A stretch of DNA of 64,000 nt from Escherichia coli. GTDB taxonomy: Bacteria > Pseudomonadota > Gammaproteobacteria > Enterobacterales > Enterobacteriaceae. The first letter of the stretch is position 1. The number at the start of each line of letters is the position of its first letter. The stretch lies in the NCBI RefSeq assembly GCF_030013595.1, contig NZ_CP122768.1; one strand, given 5' to 3'. Below the pieces are notes generated by a model, which saw nothing but the letters and a program-made list of their open reading frames with translations, made no database searches and had not been told where the DNA came from. Positions 43 to 22,369 of the stretch are shown piece after piece. The translations under genes were made by a program, and so were the position numbers.

Positions 43-810
43 ATGACTTTACGAACTGAAAATCTGACGGTCAGTTACGGGACAGACAAGGTACTTAACG
101 ACGTTTCACTCTCACTGCCAACGGGGAAGATCACCGCCCTGATCGGTCCTAACGGTTGCGGGAAATCGACGCTGTTAAACTGTTTTTCGCGGCTTTTAAT
201 GCCGCAGTCTGGCACCGTATTTCTCGGCGATAATCCCATAAATATGCTCTCATCGCGCCAGTTGGCCCGCAGGCTTTCGCTGCTGCCTCAGCACCATTTA
301 ACGCCAGAGGGGATCACAGTCCAGGAGCTGGTTTCGTATGGTCGTAATCCCTGGCTGTCACTCTGGGGGCATCTCTCCGCTGAAGACAATGCACGAGTTA
401 ATGTCGCCATGAACCAGACCCGGATTAATCATCTTGCCGTTCGTCGGTTAACCGAGCTTTCCGGCGGTCAGCGCCAGCGCGCATTTCTGGCGATGGTCCT
501 GGCCCAGAATACGCCCGTTGTATTACTTGATGAACCAACCACCTATCTTGATATCAATCACCAGGTGGACCTGATGCGGTTGATGGGCGAACTCCGGACT
601 CAGGGGAAAACGGTGGTCGCTGTGCTGCACGACCTTAATCAGGCTAGCCGGTACTGCGATCAACTGGTGGTAATGGCAAACGGGCATGTTATGGCGCAAG
701 GCACACCAGAAGAGGTGATGACCCCAGGATTGCTGAGAACAGTATTCAGCGTGGAAGCGGAAATACACCCCGAGCCGGTATCTGGCAGGCCGATGTGCCT
801 AATGAGGTAG
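43..810 (+). CDS. fecE: Ferric citrate ABC transporter ATP-binding protein FecE (last gene of fecABCDE)
   Basis: 255-aa ORF with Walker A GPNGCGKST, ABC signature LSGGQRQR and Walker B VVLLDEP; full-length agreement with E. coli FecE as recalled. Confidence 0.92.
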   Translation: MTLRTENLTVSYGTDKVLNDVSLSLPTGKITALIGPNGCGKSTLLNCFSRLLMPQSGTVFLGDNPINMLSSRQLARRLSLLPQHHLTPEGITVQELVSYGRNPWLSLWGHLSAEDNARVNVAMNQTRINHLAVRRLTELSGGQRQRAFLAMVLAQNTPVVLLDEPTTYLDINHQVDLMRLMGELRTQGKTVVAVLHDLNQASRYCDQLVVMANGHVMAQGTPEEVMTPGLLRTVFSVEAEIHPEPVSGRPMCLMR

Positions 811-1347
811 ATTGCACAGGCCGTAAGAACCAAACCACGACTGAATGAAACTGGACTGGCGCCAGCAAGCCAGTTCAGACTGGGGCTGAACTTTTCCGGA
901 CTCTGAAAGATTACCAATACTCATCGTCCATCCGCTTGCTTTAGGCTGACAGGTTCATAATCAACGCAAACCAGAGCTGTACAGGCTTGGGCGCGGCTTT
1001 CAAACCAGTCGTGATCACGGCAATCAATTTTGAACTCTGCTTAACGGACATTTCTGTATAACCCTTACGGCAACGAAAAACGCGAAGTTAAAATTTTAGA
1101 AACCCAAAAACGTGACATGACTAAGTTTAGATTTCAGGGGGGAGATCAAAAAATTTCGCTCTGTGCCAGAGCGGACATTCATGGAGCTGGTTCATTACCA
1201 ATGAGGTTGGGCTTTTGAGGATAAATCAATGATCAGACGCCAACGTAAATCAAAAGCAACCCTGGAACGGAATTGCTAATCCAGTTTCTGACCATCGATT
1301 TTTCTAAAAAGTGTGCGTTTGCTACTACTTAGGTAGGTGCAGCTTTC

Positions 1348-1839
1348 TTAATCACCGGCAGCCACGCTGGTCTGTTTACTGTCGTACTTACTGGTGTCCT
1401 GCTGGCTGCTTATCAGCAGGTCGTGGCCCACATCGGCGATAATCCTGTTGCCGTTGACCTGAGCACCGTTCAGTACCGTATCCCGACCACTGTTGATGGT
1501 GACGGTTTTACCGCTGTCTGTTGTGGTTTCAGTCCACTCAGTACCGTTACCTTTCTCGCTGCCTTTTGCCGCATTAACGCTGGCAAAGACGCTGATACCG
1601 GCACCGTTACCACCGGCACCGATACTGACACCCACGCCACCGCCAGCCCCGGTTATCAATGGTGCTGAGGTAGTCACTCCATGAATACGTGTAATCCACC
1701 AGGGTATAGCCATACGGCAGACTGACACCGGCGGCAAAATTCCTCGCATCATGTGACACCGAAAAGTCACTGCTCCGTCCCCCGCTGACAAACCAGTTGT
1801 CAGCCAGCCCCAGAGGATTATTAAAGGAAAGGACACCAT
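1348..1839 (-). pseudogene. Hemagglutinin/CdiA-like repeat fragment (TpsA remnant) in a different frame from the TpsB fragment
   Basis: Gly-rich stretch followed by ...[39 protein letters not shown]..., resembling filamentous hemagglutinin/CdiA repeats; frame overlaps the end of the TpsB fragment, suggesting a deletion/frameshift fusion. Confidence 0.4.
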
Positions 1840-2662
1840 TTAACTGCCCCGTACCGGTATTCTTCTGCCCGCTGTTGTCGATGCCCACGCTCCCTGTGAC
1901 TGGCCATTCCGGCAATGCCGTCAGTGTCACCACCGACCATCCCTCACGGTCACCGGGCGATATTTCAATCTGTACCGGTTCCGTACGCAGACGATTAATC
2001 TGCTCCATCCCCTGCTCAATATCCCGCAGGTTCAGAACCTTCCCCTCCATTCCCGGGAAAACCATCTTCAGGGTGCGGGCAGGAAGGTCAGCGCCTTCCG
2101 CCCGGATTTGCTGCAGCCTGCCTTCCATGACCGTTATGTGCAGTACGCCCCCTGAAAGGTCCTGCTCTGTCAGAAAGGCCCGGCTGGTGATATATCCCCG
2201 GCGTATATAGCCGTCCGTCACGGCATCCGTGACCGCAGTCAGGCCGGTGATATTCAGACACTGATTCACCCACGGTGCCACCAGTCTGTCGGTTTCTGCA
2301 GACGTCAGTCGGGTGGCCCCACTGACAACAATGCGTGACACCGTAAAGCAGGGGCCTTCAGTACCGGCAGACGTTTCCGGAGACGGCGTGATAGTCAGCG
2401 GCGCACTGCGCTCCAGCGCATCACGCTGATGCTGGTTTTCATCCAGCAACTGCTGCTGTTGCTGCTGAATTGCACTGCGGTCACCCGGAGACAGCATGGC
2501 TGCCGGAGACGAAAATGCGGGGATAAAAAAACCAGAAAAAACGGAGAGGGAGAGATAGCATATCCACGGAGAGCCACGCCGGAACATATCACAACAGGGG
2601 ACAGACAACGCACGGGATAAAAGGGACGTTTTCGTCAGAATGTTGTTCTGCCGGCGCTGCAT
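1607..2662 (-). pseudogene. Two-partner secretion transporter (ShlB/FhaC/CdiB family, TpsB) N-terminal fragment, about 351 codons of an expected 550-590
   Basis: Signal-peptide-like N-terminus, glutamine-rich linker, POTRA-like segment and start of the beta-barrel, then premature stop; family assignment by motif recall. Confidence 0.55.
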
Positions 2663-3177
2663 GTTCTCCCCGTATTCTGGCCTGTGTGATGCCAGTGTAA
2701 ATTCATGTCAAAAAGTGTCAGCGAGAAAATTTACACCTGAAAAAGTCTGTCATGAAACAGTTTTATGACAAGACATCAAAAAAATGTCAAAAACGTGATC
2801 TTTCTTCAGCTTTTCAGAATATTGAGTACCAGGAAGTCAATATCAATTCTGGGACACATATGCATTTACCATTAAAACCGGGCACAACAAGCTGTTCAGT
2901 CTCAATCCATACCCCGTGTTTTATCAATATCAGAATAAGAATATCTGCGGATAAATAAAAAAGGAATGTCGAGGGAGCTTACCGCAGAGGGCTCTCCACC
3001 TCACAAACCATTTACAAAAATGATACCGGCATATCTTTGGTCCCTGTCACAACCAGACATTGACAATCCAATATAACCCCAAATATATTTCGGGTAAGAA
3101 GTCTGGGATTTATACAGATATACTGTCTGTTATTACTATTTAATTATATAATTGTATTGCATACATAAGAGGCACTA

Positions 3178-3567
3178 ATGAAACGTTATATAAAATGGTT
3201 TGCCATCACAATTTTTATCAGTATGTTGAGTGCCTGTGCCCGTACGGCCCCAGTGCAACAGATAAGCACCACTGTCAGTGTGGGTCATACTCAGGAGCAG
3301 GTTAAAAATGCCATTTTGAAAGCAGGTGCGCAGCGCAAGTGGATTATGACGCAAGTGTCCCCTGGAGTTATTAAAGCTCGCTATCAAACACGAAATCACG
3401 TTGCAGAGGTTCGTATTACATATACAGCTACCTACTATAACATCAAATATGACAGTAGCCTGAATCTGCAGGCTTCTGATGGAAAAATTCATAAAAACTA
3501 TAACCGCTGGGTGCGTAACCTAGATAAAGATATACAGGTTAACTTATCTACAGGAGCAACGTTATAG
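3178..3567 (+). CDS. Small predicted lipoprotein, first gene of the lipid-biosynthesis cluster region
   Basis: 129-aa ORF with signal peptide and lipobox (ISMLSAC); lies in visibly AT-rich DNA immediately upstream of the cluster methyltransferase. Confidence 0.6.
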   Translation: MKRYIKWFAITIFISMLSACARTAPVQQISTTVSVGHTQEQVKNAILKAGAQRKWIMTQVSPGVIKARYQTRNHVAEVRITYTATYYNIKYDSSLNLQASDGKIHKNYNRWVRNLDKDIQVNLSTGATL

Positions 3568-3631: not shown

Positions 3632-4690
3632 ATGTACGAACAGGACACGCTCAGCGCACTGGATGCCATCACCGAAGCACAGCGGATTGCCTTTGCTCCT
3701 ATGCTTTTCCAGGCAGCTTTGTGCCTGCGCAATGCAGGAATATTAGATTATTTGGATCAACAGGGTAAACAGGGAGCTCCCCTTAATGCGATTACTGAGC
3801 ACACAGTCCTGAATGAATATGCCGTGGGTGTGTTACTGGATATGGGCTTAAGCGGGCGAATTATTACCTGTAAAGAGGGAATTTATTACCTGGCGAAAAT
3901 CGGTCATTACCTCCTGCATGACACTATGACTCGCGTGAATATGGATTTCACCCAGGATGTCTGTTACCAGGGGCTCTTCTTCCTTGCCGATTCACTCAAT
4001 GAAGGAAAACCTTCCGGGTTAAAAGTATTTGGCGACTGGCCGACGATATATCCGGCACTTTCGCAATTACCAGACGCCGCACGTGATAGCTGGTTTGCGT
4101 TTGATCATTACTATTCAGATGGCGCATTTAACGCCGCACTGCCTTATGTATTCGCCAACAACCCCACAACCTTGTACGATGTGGGTGGCAATACGGGTAA
4201 GTGGGCTTTGCGCTGCTGCAAATTCAATGAAAACATCGCCGTTACGTTATTAGATCTGCCACAACAAATCGTACTGGCGAAAGAAAATATCGCGAATGCA
4301 GGTTTTTCTGATCGCATAGATTTCCATGCGGTGGATATGCTAAGCGATGCCCCATTACCAGGCGAGGCTGATATCTGGTGGATGAGCCAATTTTTAGACT
4401 GTTTTTCACCCGAACAAATAATTAGCATACTCAGCAAAATTGCCAGCGTAATGAAGCCTGGCGCAAAACTTTGCATCATGGAGTTGTTCTGGGATGCACA
4501 GCGGTTTGAAGCGACATCGTTTAGCCTGAATGCATCCTCACTTTATTTTACCTGCATGGCAAACGGTAACAGCCGTTTCTATAGTGCAGAGAAATTTTAC
4601 GACTATCTGAATAAAGCAGGATTCCAGGTAGCAGAGTGTCACGATAATTTAGGCGTTGGGCATACACTTTTGATATGCCAAAAGAAATAA
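3632..4690 (+). CDS. SAM-dependent methyltransferase (APE-cluster methyltransferase-like)
   Basis: 352-aa ORF with SAM-binding motif LYDVGGNTGKWA; position matches the methyltransferase of aryl-polyene clusters. Confidence 0.75.
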   Translation: MYEQDTLSALDAITEAQRIAFAPMLFQAALCLRNAGILDYLDQQGKQGAPLNAITEHTVLNEYAVGVLLDMGLSGRIITCKEGIYYLAKIGHYLLHDTMTRVNMDFTQDVCYQGLFFLADSLNEGKPSGLKVFGDWPTIYPALSQLPDAARDSWFAFDHYYSDGAFNAALPYVFANNPTTLYDVGGNTGKWALRCCKFNENIAVTLLDLPQQIVLAKENIANAGFSDRIDFHAVDMLSDAPLPGEADIWWMSQFLDCFSPEQIISILSKIASVMKPGAKLCIMELFWDAQRFEATSFSLNASSLYFTCMANGNSRFYSAEKFYDYLNKAGFQVAECHDNLGVGHTLLICQKK

Positions 4691-6767: not shown

Positions 6768-7352
6768 TTGATGTCGGGCATTCGCTCGCTACCGATGATT
6801 AAGTTGCTGACCGGATTATTGCTGCTCGTCTGGCCTTTTTTAATCTGGCTAGGTTTGGTGCATAACAGCCTGCACTGGCTGTTGCCGCTGATGGCGCTGT
6901 TGCTTTTATTGCGCCTGCGCCAGCCCCGTCGCCAGACGGGGCCGCTCCAGGTCGTCACAAAAATCGTTGCTGTTGTGGGCATTGTATTGTGTGTCTCCAG
7001 TTTTCTGTTGAAAACGTACCAGTTACTGCTGTTTTACCCGGTAGTGGTTAACGCAGTCATGCTGGCGGTTTTTGGCGGTTCGCTGCGGTCGACAATGCCG
7101 ATAGTTGAGCGGCTGGCACGTTTGCAGGAGCCAGACCTCCCGGAAAAGGCCGTGCGATATACCCGCCGCGTAACGCAGGTCTGGTGCCTGTTTTTTATTT
7201 TCAATGGCAGTATTGCGTTATTTACCACCTTGTATGGCAACATGCCCTTGTGGACAGCCTGGAACGGTATCATTGCTTACCTTCTGATAGGTTTCCTGAC
7301 TGCAGGGGAATGGCTGATACGTCGTAAGATGATCAAACGGAAAACACCATGA
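6768..7352 (+). CDS. Small integral membrane protein of the cluster
   Basis: 194-aa ORF with several hydrophobic helices; no catalytic motif recognised. Confidence 0.6.
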   Translation: MMSGIRSLPMIKLLTGLLLLVWPFLIWLGLVHNSLHWLLPLMALLLLLRLRQPRRQTGPLQVVTKIVAVVGIVLCVSSFLLKTYQLLLFYPVVVNAVMLAVFGGSLRSTMPIVERLARLQEPDLPEKAVRYTRRVTQVWCLFFIFNGSIALFTTLYGNMPLWTAWNGIIAYLLIGFLTAGEWLIRRKMIKRKTP

Positions 7353-8707
7353 ATCAGACTCTCTCACTTTCACAGTGGTTGACAGCCTCTCGCCCTGTAA
7401 CAACTCCTGTTGCCTGGCTTGGGGAATATACCTGGACACTGGGGCATCTGCGGCATGATGTAGCGCTTTTGATCGACCATTTACGCGACCAGCCAGGCAA
7501 TCGCTGGGCACTTTGTTTTGAAAACAGCTATCTTTTTATTGTAGCGTTGTTGGCCACGCTACACTCAGGTAAAATCCCGGTAATCCCGGGCCATAATCGC
7601 GCCGCTTTGTTAAATGTACAACGCTCTTTGTTTGATTGCGTCCTGAGTGATAAAAGGCTGGGCTGGAACGGTCCACAGTTTGTTGTAAGCACATCTCACC
7701 AGATGACGACCAGCACGATAGCCTTTGATGATATTGCTTCTGACGCGTTTATTGAACTTTTCACATCGGGTTCAACCGGACAACCAAAACAAATTGCAAA
7801 ACCTGTTATCAGCCTTGATCAAGAAGCAAACATGCTGGCAACTCACTTTGCAGACCGACTACTGGGCTGTCGTTTTGTAGCATCCGTGATGCCTCAGCAC
7901 CTGTATGGGCTAACTTTCCGTATTTTTTTACCCATGGCACTTGGCCTGCCATTGCATGCCGCAATGCTCTGGTATTCTGAGCAACTTGCCGCATTAAGCC
8001 ATACCTACCGCTATGCCTTTGTCAGCAGCCCGGCGTTCCTTAAGCGACTCGACCTTCATCTGACGCCTCCCCCAGTGGAAATGATTCTCTCTGCCGGCGG
8101 TATGCTACCATGGCAGGATGTAGAGAAAACTTCCACCTGGCTGAATATATGGCCCGATGAAATCTATGGTAGTACCGAAACAGGTATTCTCGCATGGCGT
8201 TACCGTCAACAGGATAATATCCCCTGGTTTACTTTTTCTGATGTTCATCTTTCACAGGAAAGTGAGGGGGTTCGTGTCTTTTCGCCACTAATCCCTGCTG
8301 AAGGATTGGTGCTTGACGATATGTTGCAATTCAATGAAAACGGTCAGTTCCACCTGATCGGACGACGTGGTCGAGTGGTAAAAATAGAGGAGAAGCGGAT
8401 ATCACTGGTTGAAATCGAACAACGACTTCTGGCACTTGACGGTATTATGGATGTCGCTGCAATACCATTAATACGCAATGGCCGCCAGGCTATCGGTGTC
8501 GTGGTTGTACCAAATAAAGAGGCCCGTCAAATATGGCAATGCTCCGGAGGGAAAACTCTGGAGTTGTCCTGGCGCAAAGCACTATTACCATGGCTTGAAC
8601 CTGTTGCAGTACCTCGTTACTGGCGCATTATTGATGAAATACCAGTAAACAGTATGAACAAGCGTGTCTATGCGCAATTACAGGAGTTATTTCATGATAC
8701 GCCATGA
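7349..8707 (+). CDS. AMP-dependent synthetase/ligase (adenylating enzyme, probable starter-acid:ACP ligase)
   Basis: 452-aa ORF with AMP-binding motif TSGSTGQPKQ; ATGA overlap with upstream gene. Confidence 0.8.
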   Translation: MNQTLSLSQWLTASRPVTTPVAWLGEYTWTLGHLRHDVALLIDHLRDQPGNRWALCFENSYLFIVALLATLHSGKIPVIPGHNRAALLNVQRSLFDCVLSDKRLGWNGPQFVVSTSHQMTTSTIAFDDIASDAFIELFTSGSTGQPKQIAKPVISLDQEANMLATHFADRLLGCRFVASVMPQHLYGLTFRIFLPMALGLPLHAAMLWYSEQLAALSHTYRYAFVSSPAFLKRLDLHLTPPPVEMILSAGGMLPWQDVEKTSTWLNIWPDEIYGSTETGILAWRYRQQDNIPWFTFSDVHLSQESEGVRVFSPLIPAEGLVLDDMLQFNENGQFHLIGRRGRVVKIEEKRISLVEIEQRLLALDGIMDVAAIPLIRNGRQAIGVVVVPNKEARQIWQCSGGKTLELSWRKALLPWLEPVAVPRYWRIIDEIPVNSMNKRVYAQLQELFHDTP

Positions 8708-9047
8708 AATTGAGCGCCATCTGGTTCAACCGCAGGAGATGGAAATCGTTCTATACCTTGACCCGATGCTCTACTGGTTTAATGGTCATTTTGCCGTACA
8801 GCCTCTGTTACCAGGCGTGGCCCAGTTGGACTGGGTAATGCATTATGCTACCACGCTGCTTGCTCCGGGCTGGCGTTTTCGTAGTATCCAGAATGTTAAA
8901 TTTCTGGCGCCACTTATACCTGAGACGACTGTTACCCTGCAATTAACATGGCAGGAAACAAGTCAGGTACTCACTTTCTGCTATCAGCGTCACGACGGTG
9001 ACGCCCGCCACACCGCCAGTAGCGGGAAGATCCGTCTATGTCGGTAA
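8664..9047 (+). CDS. Hot-dog fold dehydratase/thioesterase-like protein
   Basis: About 120-aa ORF in the position of the small dehydratase of APE clusters; start may be the ATG at 8694. Confidence 0.55.
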   Translation: MSMRNYRSYFMIRHEIERHLVQPQEMEIVLYLDPMLYWFNGHFAVQPLLPGVAQLDWVMHYATTLLAPGWRFRSIQNVKFLAPLIPETTVTLQLTWQETSQVLTFCYQRHDGDARHTASSGKIRLCR

Positions 9048-10714
9048 ACTTTTCTCCCTGCGTGTTGATCCCCTGCTACAACCACGGCGCGATGATGCCG
9101 GGCGTGCTGGCGCGTCTTAAGCCATTTAATCTGCCCTGTATTGTGGTGGATGACGGCAGCGATGCCGCCACGCAACAGCAACTGGATAATCTGGTTAGCG
9201 AACAGCCTGGCGTGACCTTAATTCGCCTGGCAGAAAACGCAGGTAAAGGCGCAGCGGTGATGCGTGGCTTGCAGGCAGCGGCAGACGCAGGGTTCAGCCA
9301 TGCGGTGCAGGTGGATGCTGACGGTCAACATGCGATTGAAGATATCCCCAAACTGCTGGCACTCGCTGAACAACACCCTGTGGCGCTGATCTCCGGTCAG
9401 CCAATTTACGATGACTCCATTCCCCGCTCACGGCTGTACGGGCGCTGGGTCACCCACGTCTGGGTATGGATCGAAACGCTCTCCCTGCAACTGAAAGACA
9501 GCATGTGCGGTTTTCGCGTTTATCCGGTTGCGCCGACGCTGCAACTGGCAAAACGCGCCACCATCGGCAAGCGGATGGATTTCGACACCGAAGTGATGGT
9601 GCGCCTCTACTGGCAGGGAAATACCAGCTATTTCGTGCCGACCCGCGTCACCTATCCACTGGACGGGCTTTCGCATTTTGATGCCCTGAAAGATAACGTC
9701 CGCATCTCGCTCATGCACACGCGTCTGTTTTTCGGCATGTTGCCGCGTATTCCTTCACTGCTGATGTGCCACTCTTCCAGCCACTGGGCGCGGCAGAGTG
9801 AAGTTAAAGGGTTATGGGGAATGCGCCTGATGCTGCTGGTCTGGCGTCTGCTGGGAAGAACGGCGTTTACCGCGCTGCTTTACCCGGTGGTTGGCGTCTA
9901 CTGGCTCACCGCTGCTCGTGCGCGTAAAGCGTCGCAAGACTGGCTCGCCCGTGTGCGCCAACAACAACCACAGGCAGCAAAAATCAACAGCTATCAGCAC
10001 TTTCTACGTTTCGGCAACGCCATGCTCGACAAAATCGCCAGCTGGCGCGGCGAGCTGCAACTCGGGCGTGATGTGCTGTTTGCGCCAGGCGCAGAAGCGG
10101 CGCTTGACGTCCGCGATCCGCGCGGCAAATTGCTGCTGGCCTCACATCTTGGCGATGTGGAAGTGTGCCGGGCGCTGGCAAAAATTGAGGGCTACAAAAC
10201 CATTAACGCGCTGGTGTTTAGCGAAAACGCCCAACGCTTTAAACAGATAATGCAGGAGATGGCTCCCCAGGCAGGCATTAACCTGATGCCGGTAACAGAT
10301 ATCGGCCCGGAAACCGCCATCCTGCTGAAAGAGAAGCTGGATAACGGCGAATGGGTGGCGATTGTCGGTGACCGCATCGCCGTCACCCCGCAACGCGGCG
10401 GCGACTGGCGCGTCTGCTGGAGTCCGTTTATGGGCCAGCCTGCGCCCTTCCCACAGGGGCCGTTTATTCTCGCCTCTATTTTGCGCTGCCCGGTGAATCT
10501 GATTTTCGCCCTACGCCAGCACGGCAAGCTGCATATTCACTGCGAAACCTTTGCCGACCCGCTGCTGTTGCCGCGTGGCGAACGCCAACAGGCGCTGCAA
10601 AACGCTATCGACCACTACGCCGCGCGTCTGGAACATTACGCGCTCCAGTCGCCCCTCGACTGGTTTAATTTTTTCGATTTCTGGCAACTGCCGGAAATTC
10701 AGGACAAGGAGTAA
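9038..10714 (+). CDS. Fusion protein: family-2 glycosyltransferase N-terminal domain plus lipid-A-type (LpxL/HtrB-like) acyltransferase C-terminal domain
   Basis: N-terminus CVLIPCYNH...VVDDGSDAAT...VQVDADGQH (GT2 DxD-type motifs); C-terminal about 330 aa with membrane anchor and acyltransferase-like region. Confidence 0.7.
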   Translation: MSVNFSPCVLIPCYNHGAMMPGVLARLKPFNLPCIVVDDGSDAATQQQLDNLVSEQPGVTLIRLAENAGKGAAVMRGLQAAADAGFSHAVQVDADGQHAIEDIPKLLALAEQHPVALISGQPIYDDSIPRSRLYGRWVTHVWVWIETLSLQLKDSMCGFRVYPVAPTLQLAKRATIGKRMDFDTEVMVRLYWQGNTSYFVPTRVTYPLDGLSHFDALKDNVRISLMHTRLFFGMLPRIPSLLMCHSSSHWARQSEVKGLWGMRLMLLVWRLLGRTAFTALLYPVVGVYWLTAARARKASQDWLARVRQQQPQAAKINSYQHFLRFGNAMLDKIASWRGELQLGRDVLFAPGAEAALDVRDPRGKLLLASHLGDVEVCRALAKIEGYKTINALVFSENAQRFKQIMQEMAPQAGINLMPVTDIGPETAILLKEKLDNGEWVAIVGDRIAVTPQRGGDWRVCWSPFMGQPAPFPQGPFILASILRCPVNLIFALRQHGKLHIHCETFADPLLLPRGERQQALQNAIDHYAARLEHYALQSPLDWFNFFDFWQLPEIQDKE

Positions 10715-10717
10715 AGG

Positions 10718-11140
10718 GTGCTTAACGATCCCCGATTTACCGCTGAAGTCGAGCTGACCATTCCCTTTCACGACGTCGATATGATGGGCGTGGCCTGGCA
10801 CGGTAACTATTTTCGCTACTTTGAAGTGGCCCGCGAGGCGCTGCTCAACCAGTTCAATTACGGCTATCGGCAGATGAAAGAGTCCGGTTATTTGTGGCCA
10901 GTGGTCGATGCGCGGGTGAAATATCGCCACGCCCTCACCTTTGAGCAACGCATCCGCGTGCGTGCGCATATCGAAGAGTTCGAAAACCGTCTGCGGATTG
11001 GCTATCAGATTTTCGATGCCGAAACGGGCAAACGCGCCACCACCGGATACACCATTCAGGTCGCAGTCGACGAGCAAAGCCGCGAACTGTGCTTTGTCAG
11101 CCCCGATATTCTGTTTGAACGCATGGGAGTCAAACCATGA
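10718..11140 (+). CDS. 4HBT-type acyl-CoA/ACP thioesterase (hot-dog fold)
   Basis: 140-aa ORF with GTG start; resembles YbgC/4-hydroxybenzoyl-CoA thioesterase family. Confidence 0.7.
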   Translation: MLNDPRFTAEVELTIPFHDVDMMGVAWHGNYFRYFEVAREALLNQFNYGYRQMKESGYLWPVVDARVKYRHALTFEQRIRVRAHIEEFENRLRIGYQIFDAETGKRATTGYTIQVAVDEQSRELCFVSPDILFERMGVKP

Positions 11141-11742
11141 AATTTTTACCGCTGCTGGCGCTGCTGATTAGCCCGTTTGTGAGCGCCCTGACCCGGGACG
11201 ATCTTCAGCAACGCTTTACCGAACAACCGGTGATCCGCGCCCATTTCGATCAAACCCGGACGATTAAAGATCTGCCGCAGCCGCTGCGATCTCAGGGTCA
11301 GATGTTGATCGCCCGCGACCAGGGGTTATTGTGGGATCAAACCTCACCGTTCCCCATGCAACTATTACTGGACGATAAACGCATGGTGCAGGTGATCAAC
11401 GGTCAGCCGCCGCAAATCATCACGGCAGAAAACAACCCACAGATGTTCCAGTTTAACCACCTGCTGCGCGCGCTGTTCCAGGCCGATCGCAAAGTGCTGG
11501 AACAAAACTTCCGCGTCGAATTTGCCGACAAAGGCGAAGGCCGCTGGACGCTGCGCCTGACGCCGACCACCACGCCGCTGGACAAAATTTTCAACACCAT
11601 CGATCTCGCCGGGCAAACCTATCTGGAGAGCATTCAGCTTAATGATAAACAGGGCGATCGCACCGATATCGCTCTTACCCAACATCAACTGACACCAGCG
11701 CAACTGACCGATGACGAACGCCAACGCTTTGCCACCCAGTAA
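11137..11742 (+). CDS. LolA-like outer-membrane lipoprotein carrier protein
   Basis: 201-aa ORF with signal peptide; LolA-like by recall of family features and position beside the MMPL exporter. Confidence 0.65.
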   Translation: MKFLPLLALLISPFVSALTRDDLQQRFTEQPVIRAHFDQTRTIKDLPQPLRSQGQMLIARDQGLLWDQTSPFPMQLLLDDKRMVQVINGQPPQIITAENNPQMFQFNHLLRALFQADRKVLEQNFRVEFADKGEGRWTLRLTPTTTPLDKIFNTIDLAGQTYLESIQLNDKQGDRTDIALTQHQLTPAQLTDDERQRFATQ

Positions 11743-14029
11743 ACGCCCCGCGCTGTTATGGGGGCTAGTCTGCCTGGTCATGGCGGCGGCGTTGCTGATC
11801 CTGCTGCCACAATCACGACTGAACAGTAGCGTGCTGGCTATGTTACCCAAACAGGCGATGGGCGATATTCCTCCGGCGCTGAATGACGGCTTTATGCAGC
11901 GTCTGGACCGCCAACTGGTGTGGCTGGTCAGCCCCGGTAAAGAGGCTAATCCCAGGGTGGCTCAGGAGTGGCTGACGCTGCTGCAAAAATCCGCTGCGCT
12001 CGGCGACATTAAAGGGCCAATGGATGCCGCCAGCCAGCAGGCGTGGGGAGCGTTTTTCTGGCAGCACCGCAACGGCCTGATTGACCCCGACACCCGCGCC
12101 CGCCTGCAAAATGGCGGCGAAGCGCAGGCGAAGTGGATCCTCTCCCAGCTTTATTCTGCGTTCTCCGGGGTAAGCGGCAAGGAGCTGCAAAACGATCCGC
12201 TGATGTTAATGCGCGGCTCGCAGCTGGCGATGGCGAAAAATGGCCAGCGTTTACGACTAATGGACGGCTGGCTGGTGACGCAGGATCCCCAGGGCAATTA
12301 CTGGTATCTGCTGCACGGCGAACTGGCGGGATCGTCGTTTGATATGCAGCAAACCCACCAGCTCATCACGACCCTGAATACGCTGGAAAAGGCTCTGAAA
12401 ACGCGTTACCCGCAGGCGCAGTTGCTCTCACGCGGCACGGTGTTTTACAGCGATTACGCCAGCCAACAGGCGAAGCAGGATATCTCCACCCTGGGCGTGG
12501 CAACGCTGCTGGGGGTGATATTGCTGATTGTGGCGGTGTTCCGCTCTTTGCGCCCGTTGCTGCTTTGCGTGATTTCCATCGGCATCGGCGCGCTGGCGGG
12601 AACGGCCGCCACATTGTTGATTTTCGGTGAATTACACCTGATGACGCTGGTGATGAGCATGAGCGTTATCGGCATTTCCGCTGACTACACGCTCTATTAT
12701 CTCACCGAGCGGATGGTGCACGGCAACGACGTTTCGCCGTGGCAAAGCCTGGCGAAAGTACGCAATGCCCTGCTGCTGGCGCTGCTCACAACCGTGGCGG
12801 CATATCTGATTATGATGCTCGCCCCCTTCCCCGGCATTCGCCAGATGGCGATTTTTGCCGCCGTCGGGTTGAGCGCCTCTTGTCTGACCGTCCTGTTCTG
12901 GCATCCGTGGCTGTGCCGTGGTCTGCCGGTGCGCCCGGTTCCGGCGATGGCGCTGATGCTACGCTGGCTGGCAGCGTGGCGGCGCAATAAAAAACTGTCG
13001 CGGGGTCTGCCCGTTGCGCTGGCGCTGTTTTCGCTGGCGGGGATGTCAATGCTGCGCGTCGATGACGATATCTCGCAGTTACAGGCGCTGCCGCAGCACA
13101 TTCTGGCGCAGGAGAAAGCCATTACCGCCCTGACCGGACAAAGCGTCGATCAAAAATGGTTTGTAGTTTACGGCGACTCCCCACAGCAAACATTGCGGCG
13201 ACTGGAGAAATATACCGCCTCACTTGAGTATGCGAAAAAAGAGGGGCTTATCAGCAACTACCGCACTATTCCGCTGAACTCCCTGGCGCGGCAGGAGGAA
13301 GACTTAGACCTGCTGAAAACGGCTGCCCCGACGGTAACAAAAGCACTGCAAAATGCAGGGCTGACGGCGGTGAAACCAGATCTCAACGCCATGCCGGTGA
13401 AGGTCGATGAATGGCTGGCAAGCCCCGCCAGTGAAGGCTGGCGTCTGCTGTGGCTGACGCTGGAAAACGGCGAAAGCGGTGTACTGGTGCCGGTTGAAGG
13501 GGTTAAAAGTAGCGCATTGTTGCAGGAAATCGCCAGCTATTACCCTTGCGGCATTGCCTGGGTTGATCGCAAAAGCTCCTTTGATGAATTGTTCGCACTT
13601 TACCGCTACGTCTTAACCGGCTTGTTGCTGGTGGCGCTGGCAGTGATTGCCTGCGGCGCAGTGGCCCGTCTCGGCTGGCGCAAAGGGCTTATCAGCCTGG
13701 TGCCTTCGGTGCTTTCGCTGGGCTGTGGTCTGGCGGTGCTGGCGATGAGCGGGCAGGCGGTGAATCTCTTTTCGCTGCTGGCGCTGGTGCTGGTGCTTGG
13801 CATCGGTATCAACTACACGCTGTTTTTCAGTAATCCGCGCGGTACACCGTTAACTTCGCTACTGGCGATCGCGCTGGCAATGCTCACCACCTTGCTGACG
13901 CTGGGAATGCTGGTATTCAGCGCCACCCAGGCCATCAGCAGTTTTGGCATTGTGCTGGTGAGCGGTATTTTCACCGCCTTCCTGCTTTCGCCGCTGGCTA
14001 TGCCCGATAAAAAGAGAACAAAAAAATGA
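11711..14029 (+). CDS. MMPL/RND-superfamily membrane exporter
   Basis: About 770-aa ORF with two blocks of transmembrane helices separated by soluble domains; exact start codon uncertain. Confidence 0.8.
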   Translation: MTNANALPPSKRPALLWGLVCLVMAAALLILLPQSRLNSSVLAMLPKQAMGDIPPALNDGFMQRLDRQLVWLVSPGKEANPRVAQEWLTLLQKSAALGDIKGPMDAASQQAWGAFFWQHRNGLIDPDTRARLQNGGEAQAKWILSQLYSAFSGVSGKELQNDPLMLMRGSQLAMAKNGQRLRLMDGWLVTQDPQGNYWYLLHGELAGSSFDMQQTHQLITTLNTLEKALKTRYPQAQLLSRGTVFYSDYASQQAKQDISTLGVATLLGVILLIVAVFRSLRPLLLCVISIGIGALAGTAATLLIFGELHLMTLVMSMSVIGISADYTLYYLTERMVHGNDVSPWQSLAKVRNALLLALLTTVAAYLIMMLAPFPGIRQMAIFAAVGLSASCLTVLFWHPWLCRGLPVRPVPAMALMLRWLAAWRRNKKLSRGLPVALALFSLAGMSMLRVDDDISQLQALPQHILAQEKAITALTGQSVDQKWFVVYGDSPQQTLRRLEKYTASLEYAKKEGLISNYRTIPLNSLARQEEDLDLLKTAAPTVTKALQNAGLTAVKPDLNAMPVKVDEWLASPASEGWRLLWLTLENGESGVLVPVEGVKSSALLQEIASYYPCGIAWVDRKSSFDELFALYRYVLTGLLLVALAVIACGAVARLGWRKGLISLVPSVLSLGCGLAVLAMSGQAVNLFSLLALVLVLGIGINYTLFFSNPRGTPLTSLLAIALAMLTTLLTLGMLVFSATQAISSFGIVLVSGIFTAFLLSPLAMPDKKRTKK

Positions 14030-14610
14030 TCAAATCCACATTCTGGCGAGCGTTCGCCCTGACCGCTACGCTTATCCTCACCGGCTGTAGCCACTCGCAA
14101 CCAGAACAGGAAGGCCGCCCGCAGGCGTGGCTGCAACCTGGCACGCGCATCACGCTGCCGGCACCAGGGATTTCACCCGCAGTCAATTCGCAGCAACTGT
14201 TGACCGGCAGCTTCAACGGCAAAACCCAGTCGCTGTTAGTGATGCTTAACGCCGACGATCAGAAAATCACCCTTGCCGGGCTGTCGTCGGTCGGCATTCG
14301 CCTGTTTCTGGTGACCTACGATGCGCAAGGGCTACGCGCCGAGCAATCCATCGTCGTCCCACAGTTACCGCCCGCAAGTCAGGTACTGGCTGACGTGATG
14401 CTCAGCCACTGGCCGATTAGCGCCTGGGAGGCGCAACTTCCCGCAGGATGGACACTTCGCGACAACGGTGACAAACGCGAGCTGCGTAACGCCAGCGGCA
14501 AACTGGTCACGGAAATCACCTATCTGAATCGCCAGGGAAAACGCGTGCCAATCAGAATTGAGCAGCATGTCTTTAAATACCACATCACCATTCAATACTT
14601 AGGTGAATGA
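14026..14610 (+). CDS. Lipoprotein of unknown function
   Basis: 194-aa ORF with lipobox LTGC; ATGA overlap with upstream exporter gene. Confidence 0.65.
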   Translation: MIKSTFWRAFALTATLILTGCSHSQPEQEGRPQAWLQPGTRITLPAPGISPAVNSQQLLTGSFNGKTQSLLVMLNADDQKITLAGLSSVGIRLFLVTYDAQGLRAEQSIVVPQLPPASQVLADVMLSHWPISAWEAQLPAGWTLRDNGDKRELRNASGKLVTEITYLNRQGKRVPIRIEQHVFKYHITIQYLGE

Positions 14611-14611
14611 T

Positions 14612-15781
14612 ATGATTTATATTTCCGCCGTCGGCATGATCAACGCCCTGGGAAATAACCTTGACGAAATCGCAGCCAACCTGGCTCGCGGTGTCGCCCC
14701 CGGCATGCGCCCACGCGCAGGCTGGTTGCAGGGGCATCCGCAGGCGGTCCTGGCTGGCGTGGATGGCGAGCTTCCGCTTATCCCGGAAAAATTCGCTGCG
14801 CATCGCTCGCGCAACAATCAGATCCTGCTGGCGGCGCTGGCGCAGCTCCAGCCGCAGGTTGATGACGCTATCGCGAAATATGGCTGCGAGCGCATCGCGA
14901 TTGTGCTTGGCACCAGCACCTCCGGCCTGCATGAAGGCGACACGCACGTTAACCTGCACACCCACGGGCAGCCGAGCACCACGTGGCACTATGCACAACA
15001 AGAACTCGGCGATCCGTCGCGTTTTCTCAGCCACTGGCTGGCGCTCGACGGCCCGGCTTATACCCTTTCAACCGCCTGCTCCTCCAGTGCCAGAGCAATG
15101 ATCAGCGGGCGCAGGCTTATCGAAGCGGGGCTGGTCGATGCCGCCATTGTGGGTGGCGCAGACACCCTGAGCCGAATGCCGATTAACGGTTTTCACAGCC
15201 TCGAATCGCTCTCGCCAACCTTATGTCAGCCGTTTAGTCGTGACCGCGCAGGTATCACCATTGGTGAAGGGGCGGGGCTAATGCTGCTGACCCGGGAACC
15301 GCAGCCCATCGCGTTGCTGGGCGTTGGTGAATCGAGCGACGCTTACCATATTTCAGCCCCGCATCCGCAGGGCGAAGGAGCGATCCGCGCTATTAATCAG
15401 GCGCTGACCGATGCGCAGCTTACGCCGGATGACGTCGGCTATATCAACCTGCACGGCACCGCCACACAGCTCAACGACCAGATTGAATCAATGGTGGTTA
15501 ACGCCCTGTTTGGCGAACGCGTACCGTGCAGCTCCACCAAACATTTGACCGGACACACGCTCGGCGCGGCTGGCATTACCGAGGCGGCAATTAGTATGTT
15601 GATTTTACAGCGTGATTTACCGCTGCCCGCTCAGGACTTCAGCCTGTCGCCGCGCGATCCCACGCTGCCACCGTGTGGCATTATCGAAAAACCGCAGCCG
15701 CTGGCACGTCCGGTGATCCTGTCCAATTCCTTCGCCTTTGGCGGCAATAACGCCAGCATTCTGCTCGGGAGGGTTTCGTGA
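14612..15781 (+). CDS. Beta-ketoacyl-ACP synthase (FabF/FabB-like KS)
   Basis: About 390-aa ORF with KS catalytic-region motifs (active-site Cys context STACSS, HGTAT, GHTLGAAG); ATG at 14612 preceded by AGGTGA. Confidence 0.85.
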   Translation: MIYISAVGMINALGNNLDEIAANLARGVAPGMRPRAGWLQGHPQAVLAGVDGELPLIPEKFAAHRSRNNQILLAALAQLQPQVDDAIAKYGCERIAIVLGTSTSGLHEGDTHVNLHTHGQPSTTWHYAQQELGDPSRFLSHWLALDGPAYTLSTACSSSARAMISGRRLIEAGLVDAAIVGGADTLSRMPINGFHSLESLSPTLCQPFSRDRAGITIGEGAGLMLLTREPQPIALLGVGESSDAYHISAPHPQGEGAIRAINQALTDAQLTPDDVGYINLHGTATQLNDQIESMVVNALFGERVPCSSTKHLTGHTLGAAGITEAAISMLILQRDLPLPAQDFSLSPRDPTLPPCGIIEKPQPLARPVILSNSFAFGGNNASILLGRVS

Positions 15782-16242
15782 GCCACTATTTATCCCCCGG
15801 CGCTTATCTGCCCCACGACGCGCCCATGTTACTGCTGGAAGACGTGGTGAGCGTCAGCGATGACAGCGCGGTGTGCCGCGTGACGGTTTCGCCCAGTGGC
15901 GTACTGGCACCGTTTCTCGACCCGGACGGCAATCTCCCTGGCTGGTTTGCCCTTGAACTGATGGCGCAAACCGTCGGCGTCTGGTCTGGCTGGCATCGCC
16001 ACCAGCAGGGCAAAAACAGTATTGAGTTAGGGATGATACTGGGCGCGCGTGAATTGCTTTGCACCACTGGCATTCTGCCCGCAGGCCAGACGCTGACCAT
16101 TACCGTCAAACTGCTGATGCAGGACGATCGCTTCGGCAGCTTTGAGTGCAGCATCAACGACGGCGAGGCGACGGGCCGCATTAACACCTTCCAGCCGACC
16201 GCGGAAGAACTTACCACCCTGTTTCAACAAGGAGCGTCCTGA
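15778..16242 (+). CDS. FabA/FabZ-like 3-hydroxyacyl-ACP dehydratase (hot-dog fold)
   Basis: 154-aa ORF, GTG start overlapping upstream stop. Confidence 0.7.
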   Translation: MSHYLSPGAYLPHDAPMLLLEDVVSVSDDSAVCRVTVSPSGVLAPFLDPDGNLPGWFALELMAQTVGVWSGWHRHQQGKNSIELGMILGARELLCTTGILPAGQTLTITVKLLMQDDRFGSFECSINDGEATGRINTFQPTAEELTTLFQQGAS

Positions 16243-16973
16243 TGAGTCGTTCAGTTCTGGTTACTGGTGCCAGCAAAGGCATTGGTCGCGCCATCGCCTG
16301 CAAGCTTGCGGCAGACGGCTTTAACATTGGCGTTCACTATCACCGTGACGCCACAGGCGCTCAGGAAACGCTGAATGCCATTGTCGCCAACGGGGGTAAC
16401 GGGCGTTTGCTCAGTTTCGACGTCGCAAACCGCGAACAGTGTCGGGAAGTGCTGGAGCATGAGATCGCGCAACACGGTGCCTGGTACGGCGTGGTCAGTA
16501 ACGCCGGGATCGCCCGCGATGCCGCTTTTCCGGCTTTAAGCGATGACGACTGGGATGCGGTGATCCACACCAACCTCGACAGTTTCTACAACGTCATTCA
16601 GCCGTGCATTATGCCAATGATCGGCGCGCGCCAGGGTGGGCGCATCATCACGCTGTCCTCGGTTTCCGGCGTAATGGGCAATCGCGGCCAGGTGAATTAC
16701 AGCGCAGCCAAAGCCGGAATTATCGGCGCAACAAAAGCACTGGCTATCGAACTCGCAAAGCGCAAAATCACCGTCAATTGCATCGCGCCAGGGCTTATTG
16801 ATACCGGGATGATCGAAATGGAAGAAAGCGCTCTGAAAGAGGCAATGTCGATGATCCCCATGAAACGTATGGGCCAGGCGGAAGAAGTTGCCGGGCTTGC
16901 CAGTTATTTAATGTCTGATATTGCGGGTTACGTCACCCGCCAGGTTATTTCCATCAACGGAGGGATGTTATGA
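16242..16973 (+). CDS. 3-oxoacyl-ACP reductase (FabG-like short-chain dehydrogenase)
   Basis: 243-aa ORF with NAD(P)-binding TGASKGIGRA and SDR catalytic YSAAK motif. Confidence 0.9.
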   Translation: MSRSVLVTGASKGIGRAIACKLAADGFNIGVHYHRDATGAQETLNAIVANGGNGRLLSFDVANREQCREVLEHEIAQHGAWYGVVSNAGIARDAAFPALSDDDWDAVIHTNLDSFYNVIQPCIMPMIGARQGGRIITLSSVSGVMGNRGQVNYSAAKAGIIGATKALAIELAKRKITVNCIAPGLIDTGMIEMEESALKEAMSMIPMKRMGQAEEVAGLASYLMSDIAGYVTRQVISINGGML

Positions 16974-18199
16974 CACGTCGCGTAGTGATTACAGGAATGG
17001 GCGGCGTGACTGCCTTTGGTGAAAACTGGCAGGACGTTTCTGCACGCTTACTGGCGTATGAAAATGCGGTGCGCAAAATGCCGGAGTGGCAGGTCTACGA
17101 TGGGCTGCACACCCTGCTTGGCGCGCCTGTTGATGATTTCACGCTACCGGAGCACTACACCCGCAAGCGTATCCGTGCGATGGGCCGCGTGTCGCAAATG
17201 TCGACCCGTGCCAGCGAGCTGGCGTTAGAGCAGGCAGGGTTGATTGGCGATCCGATATTAACCAGCGGCGAAACGGGCATTGCGTACGGTTCATCGACCG
17301 GCAGTACCGGTCCGGTGAGCGAATTTGCCACCATGCTGACTGAAAAGCACACGAACAACATCACTGGCACCACCTATGTGCAGATGATGCCGCACACCAC
17401 CGCTGTTAATACTGGCCTCTTTTTCGGCCTGCGCGGGCGGGTGATCCCAACCTCCAGCGCCTGTACCTCCGGCAGCCAGGCGATCGGTTATGCGTGGGAA
17501 GCCATTCGCCACGGTTATCAAACGGTGATGGTTGCCGGTGGTGCCGAAGAGTTATGCCCTTCAGAAGCAGCAGTGTTTGATACCCTTTTTGCCACCAGCC
17601 AGCACAATGATGCGCCGAAAACCACACCTTCACCGTTCGATGAAAACCGCGACGGACTGGTGATTGGTGAAGGCGCAGGTACGCTCATTCTCGAAGAACT
17701 GGAGCATGCCAAAGCGCGCGGCGCGACCATTTACGGTGAAATCGTCGGCTTTGCGACGAACTGCGACGCGGCACATATTACCCAGCCGCAGCGCGAAACC
17801 ATGCAGTATTGTATGGAGCAATCGCTGAAAATCGCAGGGTTAAGCGCACAAGATATCGGCTATATTTCAGCGCATGGTACGGCGACCGATCGCGGTGATA
17901 TGGCAGAAAGTCTGGCGACAGCAACCATTTACGGTGATAATGTGCCGCTCTCCTCGCTGAAAAGTTATTTTGGTCATACGCTTGGTGCCTGTGGCGCGCT
18001 CGAAGCCTGGATGAGTCTGCAAATGATGCGCGAAGGTTGGTTTGCGCCTACGCTAAACCTGAATAAACCAGACCCGAATTGTGGCGCGCTGGATTACATC
18101 ATGCATGAAGCCCGCAGGGTTGATTGTGAGTTTTTGCAGAGTAACAACTTTGCCTTTGGCGGCATTAATACATCCATCATTATTAAGCGCTGGCCCTGA
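16970..18199 (+). CDS. Beta-ketoacyl-ACP synthase (FabB/FabF-like KS)
   Basis: 409-aa ORF with KS motifs (SSACTSG, HGTAT, GHTLGACG); ATGA overlap with reductase gene. Confidence 0.9.
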   Translation: MTRRVVITGMGGVTAFGENWQDVSARLLAYENAVRKMPEWQVYDGLHTLLGAPVDDFTLPEHYTRKRIRAMGRVSQMSTRASELALEQAGLIGDPILTSGETGIAYGSSTGSTGPVSEFATMLTEKHTNNITGTTYVQMMPHTTAVNTGLFFGLRGRVIPTSSACTSGSQAIGYAWEAIRHGYQTVMVAGGAEELCPSEAAVFDTLFATSQHNDAPKTTPSPFDENRDGLVIGEGAGTLILEELEHAKARGATIYGEIVGFATNCDAAHITQPQRETMQYCMEQSLKIAGLSAQDIGYISAHGTATDRGDMAESLATATIYGDNVPLSSLKSYFGHTLGACGALEAWMSLQMMREGWFAPTLNLNKPDPNCGALDYIMHEARRVDCEFLQSNNFAFGGINTSIIIKRWP

Positions 18200-18206
18200 G
18201 TTATAC

Positions 18207-18229
18207 AACCACATGGACATCCCATGTGG
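18207..18229 (+). terminator. Hairpin immediately after the last cluster gene (weak terminator candidate)
   Basis: accacatgg / ccatgtggt inverted repeat with 5-nt loop; no strong T-run, so low confidence. Confidence 0.3.
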
Positions 18230-19038
18230 TGATTCTTCAAAAAATCTGAATCAATGAATATGAACCTCAAATTCTCTTACGCATACTGAAGAGCATTCCG
18301 TATAACGATTCAGCAGACAAAACTTTATCAGTCCACACGAATCAACGGATGCACAGATGACACGCCCGGTTATCACCGGGCAATGGTTGCCATAACGGGT
18401 AACATAAGGGACTGAACAGTTGTCTTTAGCGCAACGAACTGATCTAACGTACCTGAACGGACAACCTGAAAACAGTCTTTCACCCTGCATTGTCCGCCAG
18501 TGCTTATTACCAACCACGTCTGTTGCAGTAAAGTAATCAGTTGCGAACATTATTTATCAATCGTGACGCTGGCTCGCGCATGGCAGAAAAGGTCCTGACT
18601 GAGCAACAACAGGCATCGTACTGTTGCTGCTCCATGTTGTTTATATGAACGCATCCCGTTTGCAAGGCTTCCGTGTTTTTGACGTTGACGGTAGATTGCT
18701 GCTCTATATCCTTATTGCAGCCGGTGCTGCGGGCCTCAATGAGATTCGCTGACTCTCGCCTTATTCACGCAACGAGCTTTAAGCTCAGAAAAACATCCAA
18801 GTTTGGTGAGTCACAGTCTTACCTGTCGTTGTCATCAATATAGGAATGGATAATCTGGAGAGCGATACTGCAGGCTGATATTGCGGTTTTGCGACAAGTT
18901 TTTAGCATCCGCTTCTACGCCAAATACCTGAAGTAGGAATGGATGCGTTAGCAGCATACATCCGGAACTGCGCGGGGAATAGCCGGAAACGGCTATCCCT
19001 ACCACAATAGCTAACTTTGTAATAGCGCTCTTTTAGGC

Positions 19039-20070
19039 TCATGTACTCTGACGTAATTCTATCTGGTAGTTGAATTGCACGATACGCGACTCTTCTGATT
19101 CATCATGATTATTATTCAATAGTCCAATCAGTAACTTACCTGTCTCTATCCCCATTTTTTTGTAGTCAATACGGATGGATGTCAAAGTTGGGTGTGTTTG
19201 ATCGCAATTGTCTGAACCGTCAAGACAAGCTACAGCGATATTTCCAGGGATTTTTAACAAACGCCGCTGGCACTCAAACATTATACCCAGCGCAATCTCT
19301 TCGTGGCTGCAAATCACAGCATCCAGCTCTGGTTGTCGCAGTAATATCTCGTTTAATGCGTAACGCCCCAATTGCAGACTTGCGGCATCCGGCATGGTGA
19401 TAACAAGATCAGTGTTCTGGTAATGGCTCAGCATTGCTTTATGCCAGCCGTTCAGTTGCTGACGTTGCAGGCGGTTGTCCATATGCGCACCGATAAATCC
19501 GATATTCTTATAACCCTGCTCCAGCAGATGTTCGGTCAGTTTATGTGATGCTTCAAAAAATGCTGTTTCGATGGTAATTTGAGCCGGACTGAAAGGGGAA
19601 CCGATAACGTTAATGGTAGGTATATTTGTTTTCTCGAGTATCTGGTGAGTTTTATCAGCCAACTGAGAACCAAAAATAACTAACGCCGCCGGGTTGCCTT
19701 GAAGAAGCGTCATCAGAATTTCAGCTTCTTTGAGCTGATTATACTCATGACACCCAAGCAGTAGCTGGAATTCATTTTTATTAAGCACCTGCTGTAATGA
19801 CTGCATAAAGCGGGAGCTGGCTTTATCTGTCAGGGAAGGAACCAGTACGGCGACTGTATGACTGTGACCAGATGCAAGGGCGCCAGCAGTTCTGTTGGGA
19901 ATATAACCCAACTCTTCTACGGCCTGTTCTATCTTTTCCCTCAGCTTGTCAGAAACCTGTTCCGGTGTTCTCAGCGCGCGGGAAACGGTCATAGTTCCGA
20001 CACCTGCAAAGTTAGCGACCTCCTGCAGCGTCACCCGTCCGGTACCACGGCGCTTACGTGTTTTTTCCAT
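19039..20070 (-). CDS. LacI/GalR-family transcriptional regulator
   Basis: 343-aa ORF with N-terminal HTH (VTLQEVANFAGVGTMTVSRAL) and periplasmic-binding-protein-like sugar-binding domain. Confidence 0.9.
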   Translation of the reverse strand: MEKTRKRRGTGRVTLQEVANFAGVGTMTVSRALRTPEQVSDKLREKIEQAVEELGYIPNRTAGALASGHSHTVAVLVPSLTDKASSRFMQSLQQVLNKNEFQLLLGCHEYNQLKEAEILMTLLQGNPAALVIFGSQLADKTHQILEKTNIPTINVIGSPFSPAQITIETAFFEASHKLTEHLLEQGYKNIGFIGAHMDNRLQRQQLNGWHKAMLSHYQNTDLVITMPDAASLQLGRYALNEILLRQPELDAVICSHEEIALGIMFECQRRLLKIPGNIAVACLDGSDNCDQTHPTLTSIRIDYKKMGIETGKLLIGLLNNNHDESEESRIVQFNYQIELRQST

Positions 20071-20215
20071 TTCGACTCCATGGATAATTACAACCAGCTG
20101 TTTTCATTACTTTTATTTCACCATTACTCTTTCCAGTTTTTGCCCACGGTAGCAAATATCCTGTTGCATTGTATATGCAGGAACCGAATATAGCCAAAGC
20201 ATGGCGGCAGAGAAA

Positions 20216-20263
20216 TGATAGCGCTATCACAAAGATTGGTAGCGTTATCAGATAGCGCTATCA
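20216..20263. promoter_or_regulatory. Two copies of a 14-bp palindrome (TGATAGCGCTATCA and AGATAGCGCTATCA), candidate LacI-family operators
   Basis: Perfect and near-perfect palindromes at 20216-20229 and 20250-20263, in the divergent intergenic region between the regulator and the PTS operon. Confidence 0.55.
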
Positions 20264-20340
20264 AATGCGACAATCATCACATTAATTAATGCGTAAAATA
20301 TCTACTCTCCTGTTAATTATCATCGGGAGTTATCAGTAGC

Positions 20341-20784
20341 ATGTTAAAAAATCTATTAAATACAGAGGTCGTTCAGGTCGTGGAACAGGTCAAAGACTGG
20401 CGGGAAGCCGTGGCGATTTCATGCCGACCGTTGATTGAAAACGGCTCTATCGAACCGCGTTATGTTGATGCGATCTATCACTCGCACGACACTATCGGTC
20501 CGTACTATGTGGTTGGCCCTGGTATTGCGATGCCTCATGCGCGCCCGGAAGAGGGGGCTAACAAGCTGTCATTAGCACTGACCCTGATCCCTTCAGGTGT
20601 GAATTTTGATGCCGATGAAAACGATCCAGTGAAATTACTGATTGTGCTGGCTGCAACCGACAGTACCAGCCACATTGAAGCGATTTCTCAACTCGCCAAG
20701 TTATTCGATAACGAAAAAGACATACAGGCCATTTTGACGGCCAAAACGACGCAGGACATTTTGTCTGTTATTGCGCGCTATTAA
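20341..20784 (+). CDS. PTS EIIA component (mannitol/fructose/ascorbate-type EIIA)
   Basis: 147-aa ORF with active-site His context (GIAMPHAR). Confidence 0.85.
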   Translation: MLKNLLNTEVVQVVEQVKDWREAVAISCRPLIENGSIEPRYVDAIYHSHDTIGPYYVVGPGIAMPHARPEEGANKLSLALTLIPSGVNFDADENDPVKLLIVLAATDSTSHIEAISQLAKLFDNEKDIQAILTAKTTQDILSVIARY

Positions 20785-20799
20785 TCCAGAGGAACATTT

Positions 20800-21087: not shown

Positions 21088-21099
21088 GCTGGGGGCGAT

Positions 21100-22356: not shown

Positions 22357-22369
22357 TATTTTGATGACA

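Follow-up and report, generated by a model that had tools for sequence, protein, structure and literature searches.

The window analyzed here, a 64-kb stretch of Escherichia coli DNA, starts with fecE (43-810). Beyond it, the minus strand carries two ORFs that overlap, 1607-2662 (351 aa) and 1348-1839 (163 aa); they sit within a genomic island, with the fec operon on one side and a biosynthetic cluster of the aryl-polyene type (APE) on the other. On the fec side they are bordered by a non-coding flank (811-1354) that is found with at least 99% identity in 2,712 genomes, including those of K-12 and BL21. On the other side lies the intergenic region upstream of cdiB (2663-3177), which is retained intact, is contiguous with the same region of intact loci, and presumably holds the cdiB promoter; a promoter scan upstream of cdiB gave four matches versus 2.8 ± 1.8 expected from shuffled sequences, i.e., no excess. 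A 129-aa lipoprotein-like hypothetical ORF (3178-3567) then precedes the APE cluster. In the PGAP annotation of strain H10407, two pseudogenes correspond to this region: a "hemagglutinin repeat-containing protein" missing its N and C termini (window 1354-1653) and a "ShlB/FhaC/HecB family" protein missing its C terminus (window 1634-2662). A preliminary description of this DNA had taken the two ORFs for a degraded CDI-type two-partner secretion locus, a reading on which Pfam, comparison with the CdiB structure 6WIM, and tblastn all agree.

The larger ORF begins as cdiB. Its first 343 codons (1634-2662, minus strand), of about 590 in a complete gene, cover an extended signal peptide, H1, the linker, POTRA1, POTRA2, and approximately strands β1-β5. 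The 351-aa product matched the Pfam families POTRA_2 (1e-25) and POTRA_3 (3.4e-19), and only positions 1-99 of the 311-position ShlB barrel profile were matched (7.3e-24). NCBIfam models returned weak BamA POTRA matches, far under the cut-off, and nothing else. Against the E. coli CdiB structure 6WIM, whose chain has 538 residues, residues 55-343 of the product align with residues 3-291 (E = 3e-191, ~98% identity), and the similarity breaks off exactly at chain residue 291; the match of FhaC to the same product was far weaker (E = 4e-17). Consistently, tblastn of M-17 CdiB against the window matched residues 1-343 with 98.3% identity. Full-length CdiB proteins at syntenic loci are 588-590 aa long and the 6WIM match stops at 291 of 538 residues, so the ORF is a truncated gene and not a member of a shorter family; truncation had already been supposed in the preliminary description from its length of 351 codons.

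The structure paper on E. coli CdiB places the signal sequence at residues 1-52, R309 on β6, K314 on β7, and loop 6 at about 421-440 (PMC7644211). Using R309 and K314 as landmarks for strand assignment, we infer that some five strands are left in the stump, in addition to H1, the linker, and the two POTRA domains, and that β6-β16 and the lid loop are gone. Compared with what is expected of a TpsB/Omp85 protein, the N-terminal signal peptide, H1, and the two POTRA domains are present (Pfam, 6WIM alignment); the complete 16-stranded β-barrel is not, β6 (R309) and everything after it being absent, and loop 6 with its VRG(F/Y) lid-lock motif (~421-440) falls past the truncation at 291. The stump differs from cdiB of strain 2013C-4974 at 8 positions (7 synonymous, 1 non-synonymous) and from that of M-17 at 13 (6 synonymous, 7 non-synonymous), numbers that offer few sites for a test of relaxed selection. 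Since the upstream region is retained, the stump might still be transcribed.

The second piece, 291 nt long (1355-1645, minus strand), is an internal part of cdiA encoding FHA-2 hemagglutinin repeats; in a CdiA of 3289 aa, residues ~2560-2657 correspond to it. All 291 nt agree with cdiA of plasmid pO113-EH41, and identity to the M-17 gene is 99.3%. The similarities of both pieces to cdiB and cdiA are far above chance; comparison of the cdiA piece with solved structures yielded chance-level matches only (E > 0.4). The 163-aa ORF is wider than the piece. Its Pfam match to Fil_haemagg_2 (3.7e-26) is restricted to residues 66-158, and tblastn coverage by intact CdiA is confined to window positions 1647-1354; hence, its first ~64 codons (1839-1648) represent an alternative frame of cdiB and not CdiA. 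Its last codons and stop (1348-1354, minus strand) come from the unrelated flank, as seen from alignment to the pO113 and 1EC187 cdiA genes, which ends at window position 1355 (GCTGCCGG followed by TGATTAA versus GCTGCCGG followed by CGGCAGT). The preliminary description had a second frame with TpsA repeats overlapping the end of the TpsB ORF: only 1355-1645 derives from cdiA, and part of the overlap is an artefact of the reading frames, the true one being the 12 nt shared at the junction.

The cdiA piece lacks a start and ends ~1.8 kb (~595 codons) short of the pO113 cdiA end. Of the parts of a TpsA protein, FHA repeats are represented by 97 codons only. When three full-length CdiA proteins were compared with the whole window by tblastn, no signal peptide or TPS domain was detected, residues ~2560-2657 alone giving a match, and neither a VENN-type pre-toxin region nor a C-terminal toxin domain was found in the window by tblastn.

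To see what a more complete locus looks like at this position, we turned to strains 2013C-4974 (locus L002) and OkiPb01713 (locus L010), the two genomes with a fuller fec-linked form. In 2013C-4974, the order is APE cluster, a hypothetical gene, cdiB, cdiA, cdiI, a hemagglutinin-repeat fragment, ISEc8, a second such fragment, a 545-bp spacer, and fecE, with both cdiB and cdiA flagged as frameshifted. In OkiPb01713, the order is the same and each of the three cdi genes is intact (cdiB, 590 aa; cdiA, 3259 aa; cdiI, 78 aa). At this APE-side position, M-17 too has an intact cdiBAI. Taken together, both short hemagglutinin-repeat fragments of 2013C-4974 equal nt 7174-7972 of pO113 cdiA; they therefore constitute one orphan piece of ~800 bp that starts ~120 nt past cdiI and is split by ISEc8, with an 8-bp duplication. 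Over the same stretch, the strain's own cdiA has only ~76% identity. The piece in the window is identical to this orphan except for one 15-nt indel in a Gly-rich repeat. At the indel (GGTGGTAACGGTGCC, window ~1600-1614), pO113 and M-17 agree with the window, and the orphan piece of 2013C-4974 and OkiPb01713 differs; the indel looks like repeat slippage.

The 3′ end of the piece (window 1355) is identical in the window, 2013C-4974, and OkiPb01713, and homology to K-12 reaches window position 1366, 12 nt into the cdiA piece. The boundary between cdiA and the fec flank is thus old and independent of the deletion studied here. We infer that the retained cdiA sequence is a separate, pre-truncated orphan from beyond cdiI and not part of the locus's own cdiA. 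K-12 and BL21 have the fec flank and 12 nt of the orphan piece (window 1355-1366; positions 4545-4556 of the K-12 locus L005), followed by a gene for an 85-aa hypothetical protein and IS remnants; the 12 nt look like a small trace of a cdi locus that once lay next to fecE in these laboratory strains.

Alignment to the 2013C-4974 and OkiPb01713 loci placed the deletion endpoints within 12 nt, TGGCGGTGGCGT (1634-1645). This microhomology is present in both parental sequences, and the blastn segments overlap by exactly these 12 nt. Window positions 3700-1634 are colinear with L002 14963-17029 (99.5%) and positions 1645-1 with L002 30745-32375 (98.8%); alignment of the OkiPb01713 locus to the window gave an equivalent two-block result. 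In the 32.7-kb OkiPb01713 locus, the 12-mer occurs at two sites only, 2318 (in cdiB) and 16186 (in the orphan piece), 13,868 bp apart. Base-by-base alignment shows that the shared nucleotides are read as TGG CGG TGG CGT in cdiB and as T GGC GGT GGC GT in cdiA. Because the junction joins the pieces out of frame, the cdiB ORF continues through eight wrong-frame codons of cdiA-derived DNA (GCQYRCRW and a stop; 1607-1633, minus strand) and stops at 1607. The arrangement fits a single microhomology-mediated deletion, although, with some 30 identical 12-mer pairs expected by chance in a 33-kb locus by our estimate, the microhomology is compatible with this mechanism and not proof of it.

Taken together, the region is in all likelihood a non-functional remnant of a cdiBAI locus, produced by one deletion from a locus like that of OkiPb01713. 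The ancestor would have contained cdiB, cdiA, and cdiI, followed by an ~800-bp orphan from an older cdiA that was already truncated at the fec flank. One event of illegitimate recombination or replication slippage between the two copies of TGGCGGTGGCGT, at cdiB codons 340-343 and in the orphan piece, would then have removed ~13.9 kb, or ~11.4 kb if ISEc8 (2,442 bp plus the 8-bp duplication) was not yet present. This would have taken away CdiB residues 344-590 (approximately β6-β16, with loop 6), cdiA and cdiI in full, and ~0.5 kb from the 5′ end of the orphan piece. That the event was a deletion and not an insertion is itself deduced from these comparisons. The preliminary description had invoked an internal deletion of the barrel and of most of the exoprotein; the deletion appears real, but the loss was understated, as the entire cdiA and cdiI are most likely gone and the fragment that stayed behind is an orphan. 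The arrangement proposed as ancestral is present in the two genomes 2013C-4974 and OkiPb01713 only, in both with ISEc8 inside the orphan piece, and two chimeric queries revealed no IS-free version among 5,426 complete E. coli genomes.

The same collection was used to follow the junction. It was recovered as one contiguous alignment with at least 99.4% identity in 26 of the 5,426 genomes, while cdiB runs continuously across the breakpoint in 731 genomes, at this site or others, and exactly 26 further genomes match on one side of the breakpoint only. Carriers include ETEC of the H10407 type (O78-type) as well as O141:H4, O114:H49, O103:H2, and O121 strains; window positions 800-3200 are 100% identical in several complete E. 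coli chromosomes, that of ETEC H10407 among them. Some carriers of the deletion allele (among ETEC1731, DEC9B, and 7_33_46A) have an extra IS3-family element inside 800-3200, and in O103:H2-type carriers homology is lost upstream of window position ~2750. Judged from these sequences, the insertion and the loss of homology indicate further decay of the remnant.

A somewhat different history, the one put forward in the preliminary description and in our view improbable though worth weighing, is that the deletion took place within one cdiB-cdiA pair, the cdiA being of the M-17/pO113 type and having earlier lost its 3′ end at the fec flank; ~8.4 kb, from cdiB nt 1029 to cdiA nt ~7680, would then have been lost. 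M-17 does have an intact cdiBAI at the APE-side position, and as its own cdiA is 99.3% identical to the piece, sequence alone cannot tell whether the piece was already an orphan when the deletion occurred. The form seen in 2013C-4974 and OkiPb01713 could in principle also have arisen later, through an incoming cdiBAI that recombined into the homology arms. However, the same two chimeric queries found at least 1 kb of cdiA contiguous with the fec flank in none of the 5,426 genomes, the sole genomes with more cdi sequence at the fec junction carry the piece as an orphan after cdiI, and cdiB of the window is nearer to that of 2013C-4974 (8 differences) than to that of M-17 (13).

A related notion, for which we see little room, is that the remnant serves as a landing pad for re-gain of cdiBAI by homologous recombination, one arm being the 1.0 kb of cdiB with its upstream region and the other the FHA-2 sequence of cdiA (0.3 kb), and that the 2013C-4974 and OkiPb01713 loci are instances of such re-gain, or else that an exported POTRA stump interferes with other two-partner systems, such as EtpBA in ETEC. 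Still less probable is that the 351-aa ORF encodes a functional short protein under selection, e.g., a periplasmic chaperone or a decoy. The ORF is open, its upstream region is intact, and the allele persists in 26 genomes of varied serotypes, but neutrality and clonal descent explain this persistence equally well. Moreover, the product agrees with full-length CdiB as far as the breakpoint (~98% identity), after which come eight wrong-frame cdiA codons; loop 6 and 11 of the 16 barrel strands are missing, no TpsA partner is present, and PGAP calls the ORF a pseudogene. Finally, a collapsed repeat leading to a false join, conceivable given that cdiA is repetitive and Gly-rich and that the join lies within a short repeat, is ruled out for practical purposes by recurrence of the same junction in 26 complete genomes assembled independently of one another, each time as one contiguous alignment with at least 99.4% identity.

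We also looked for the rest of a CDI system. When intact CdiB proteins, three full-length CdiA, and six CdiI were used as tblastn queries, no further CDI sequence was detected in the 64-kb window. In particular, no cognate cdiI was found 3′ of the cdiA piece, and none of the six CdiI, which come from related loci, matched anywhere in the window. Nor can a novel, unrelated CdiI hide at the 3′ side of the piece, because 811-1354 is the non-coding flank shared with K-12. The earlier claim that no intact toxin or immunity gene is left at the locus thus holds for the whole window. An orphan cdiA-CT/cdiI module is likewise not what remains, as the piece is an internal FHA-2 stretch alone, with neither CT nor cdiI.

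For type Vb secretion, the 16-stranded barrel of a TpsB has to be closed, and its TpsA partner must carry a TPS domain. Since the barrel cannot be closed and there is no TpsA substrate, we consider the cdi remnant to be inert; the strain would be expected neither to deploy the lost toxin nor to resist it. Work on CDI "surveillance" suggests that, among CDI+ siblings, selection normally acts against a loss of immunity (PMC4927057). We speculate that persistence of the loss could mean that the ancestral system was silent or already damaged, as the frameshifted copy in 2013C-4974 hints.

Directly upstream of the remnant lies a complete APE-type cluster (3632 to ~18200) with genes for a methyltransferase, KS/CLF, two ACPs, ApeI/ApeP-type dehydratases, a glycosyltransferase, LolA-like and MMPL proteins, and FabG2. 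Further on, an IS1 element (26558-27325) joins the rbsK side of the island straight to cadC, which is without its first 279 codons and persists as a 226-aa C-terminal ORF (27347-28027); induction of lysine decarboxylase would be expected to be abolished by this loss. Upstream of cadC, the region on the pheU side is absent, and the window yielded no tRNA gene. A second IS1 copy is located at 44093-44860. In OkiPb01713, the fec-cdi-APE island is found at a tRNA-Phe gene beside yqgA (pheV), together with an integrase (L010 25721-27256). In the window, it is cadC that borders the island at its other end; in strain E21, cadC neighbors a tRNA-Phe gene, presumably pheU. This suggests a rearrangement between the two Phe-tRNA island sites.

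The window differs from the H10407 chromosome by three SNPs in its first 9.2 kb and diverges from it completely after 26557, a divergence that rules out H10407 itself as the source of this DNA. In H10407, PTS IIA/IIC genes are split by IS150 and IS100 insertions, neither of which is present over window positions 8402-26557. No complete genome of the collection contains positions 24000-48000 in one piece.

Among known systems, the remnant is closest to the E. coli cdiBAI loci (EC93-type CdiB, 6WIM; OkiPb01713; M-17), with which it shares the APE-side position, the upstream region, ~98-99% identity in cdiB codons 1-343, and, in its cdiA piece, 99-100% identity to the FHA-2 repeats of intact cdiA. 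In contrast to those loci, it has no CdiB residues 344-590, no functional CdiA (TPS, FHA-1, receptor-binding, pre-toxin, and toxin regions), and no CdiI, and cannot function in CDI. The orphan cdiA-CT/cdiI modules that lie downstream of cdi loci consist of a toxin-encoding CT region and its cognate cdiI (Poole et al., 2011, PMC3150448). The piece in 2013C-4974 and OkiPb01713 resembles such modules in being a promoter-less cdiA fragment after the main cdiI; however, the retained piece encodes no CT toxin or CdiI and ends ~595 codons before the end of pO113 cdiA. FhaC/FHA and ShlB/ShlA belong to the same Pfam families (POTRA_2, ShlB, Fil_haemagg_2) but are only distant relatives, the remnant being of the CDI subfamily.

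Our literature search found no published description of this remnant. Pseudogenised cdiBAI loci are already known in kind, and RefSeq marks both pieces as pseudogenes; mapping of the deletion and the orphan origin of the cdiA piece are small refinements. The importance of the finding beyond bookkeeping is small, and it makes no open question testable. The 12-nt junction is nonetheless a clean example of decay of a polymorphic toxin locus and could serve as a lineage marker. As for the bacteria themselves, carriers of the allele, i.e., H10407-type ETEC and several O103, O121, and O141 strains, would have lost both a CDI weapon and the matching immunity and, with the immunity gene gone, should be sensitive to the toxin of relatives whose locus is intact.
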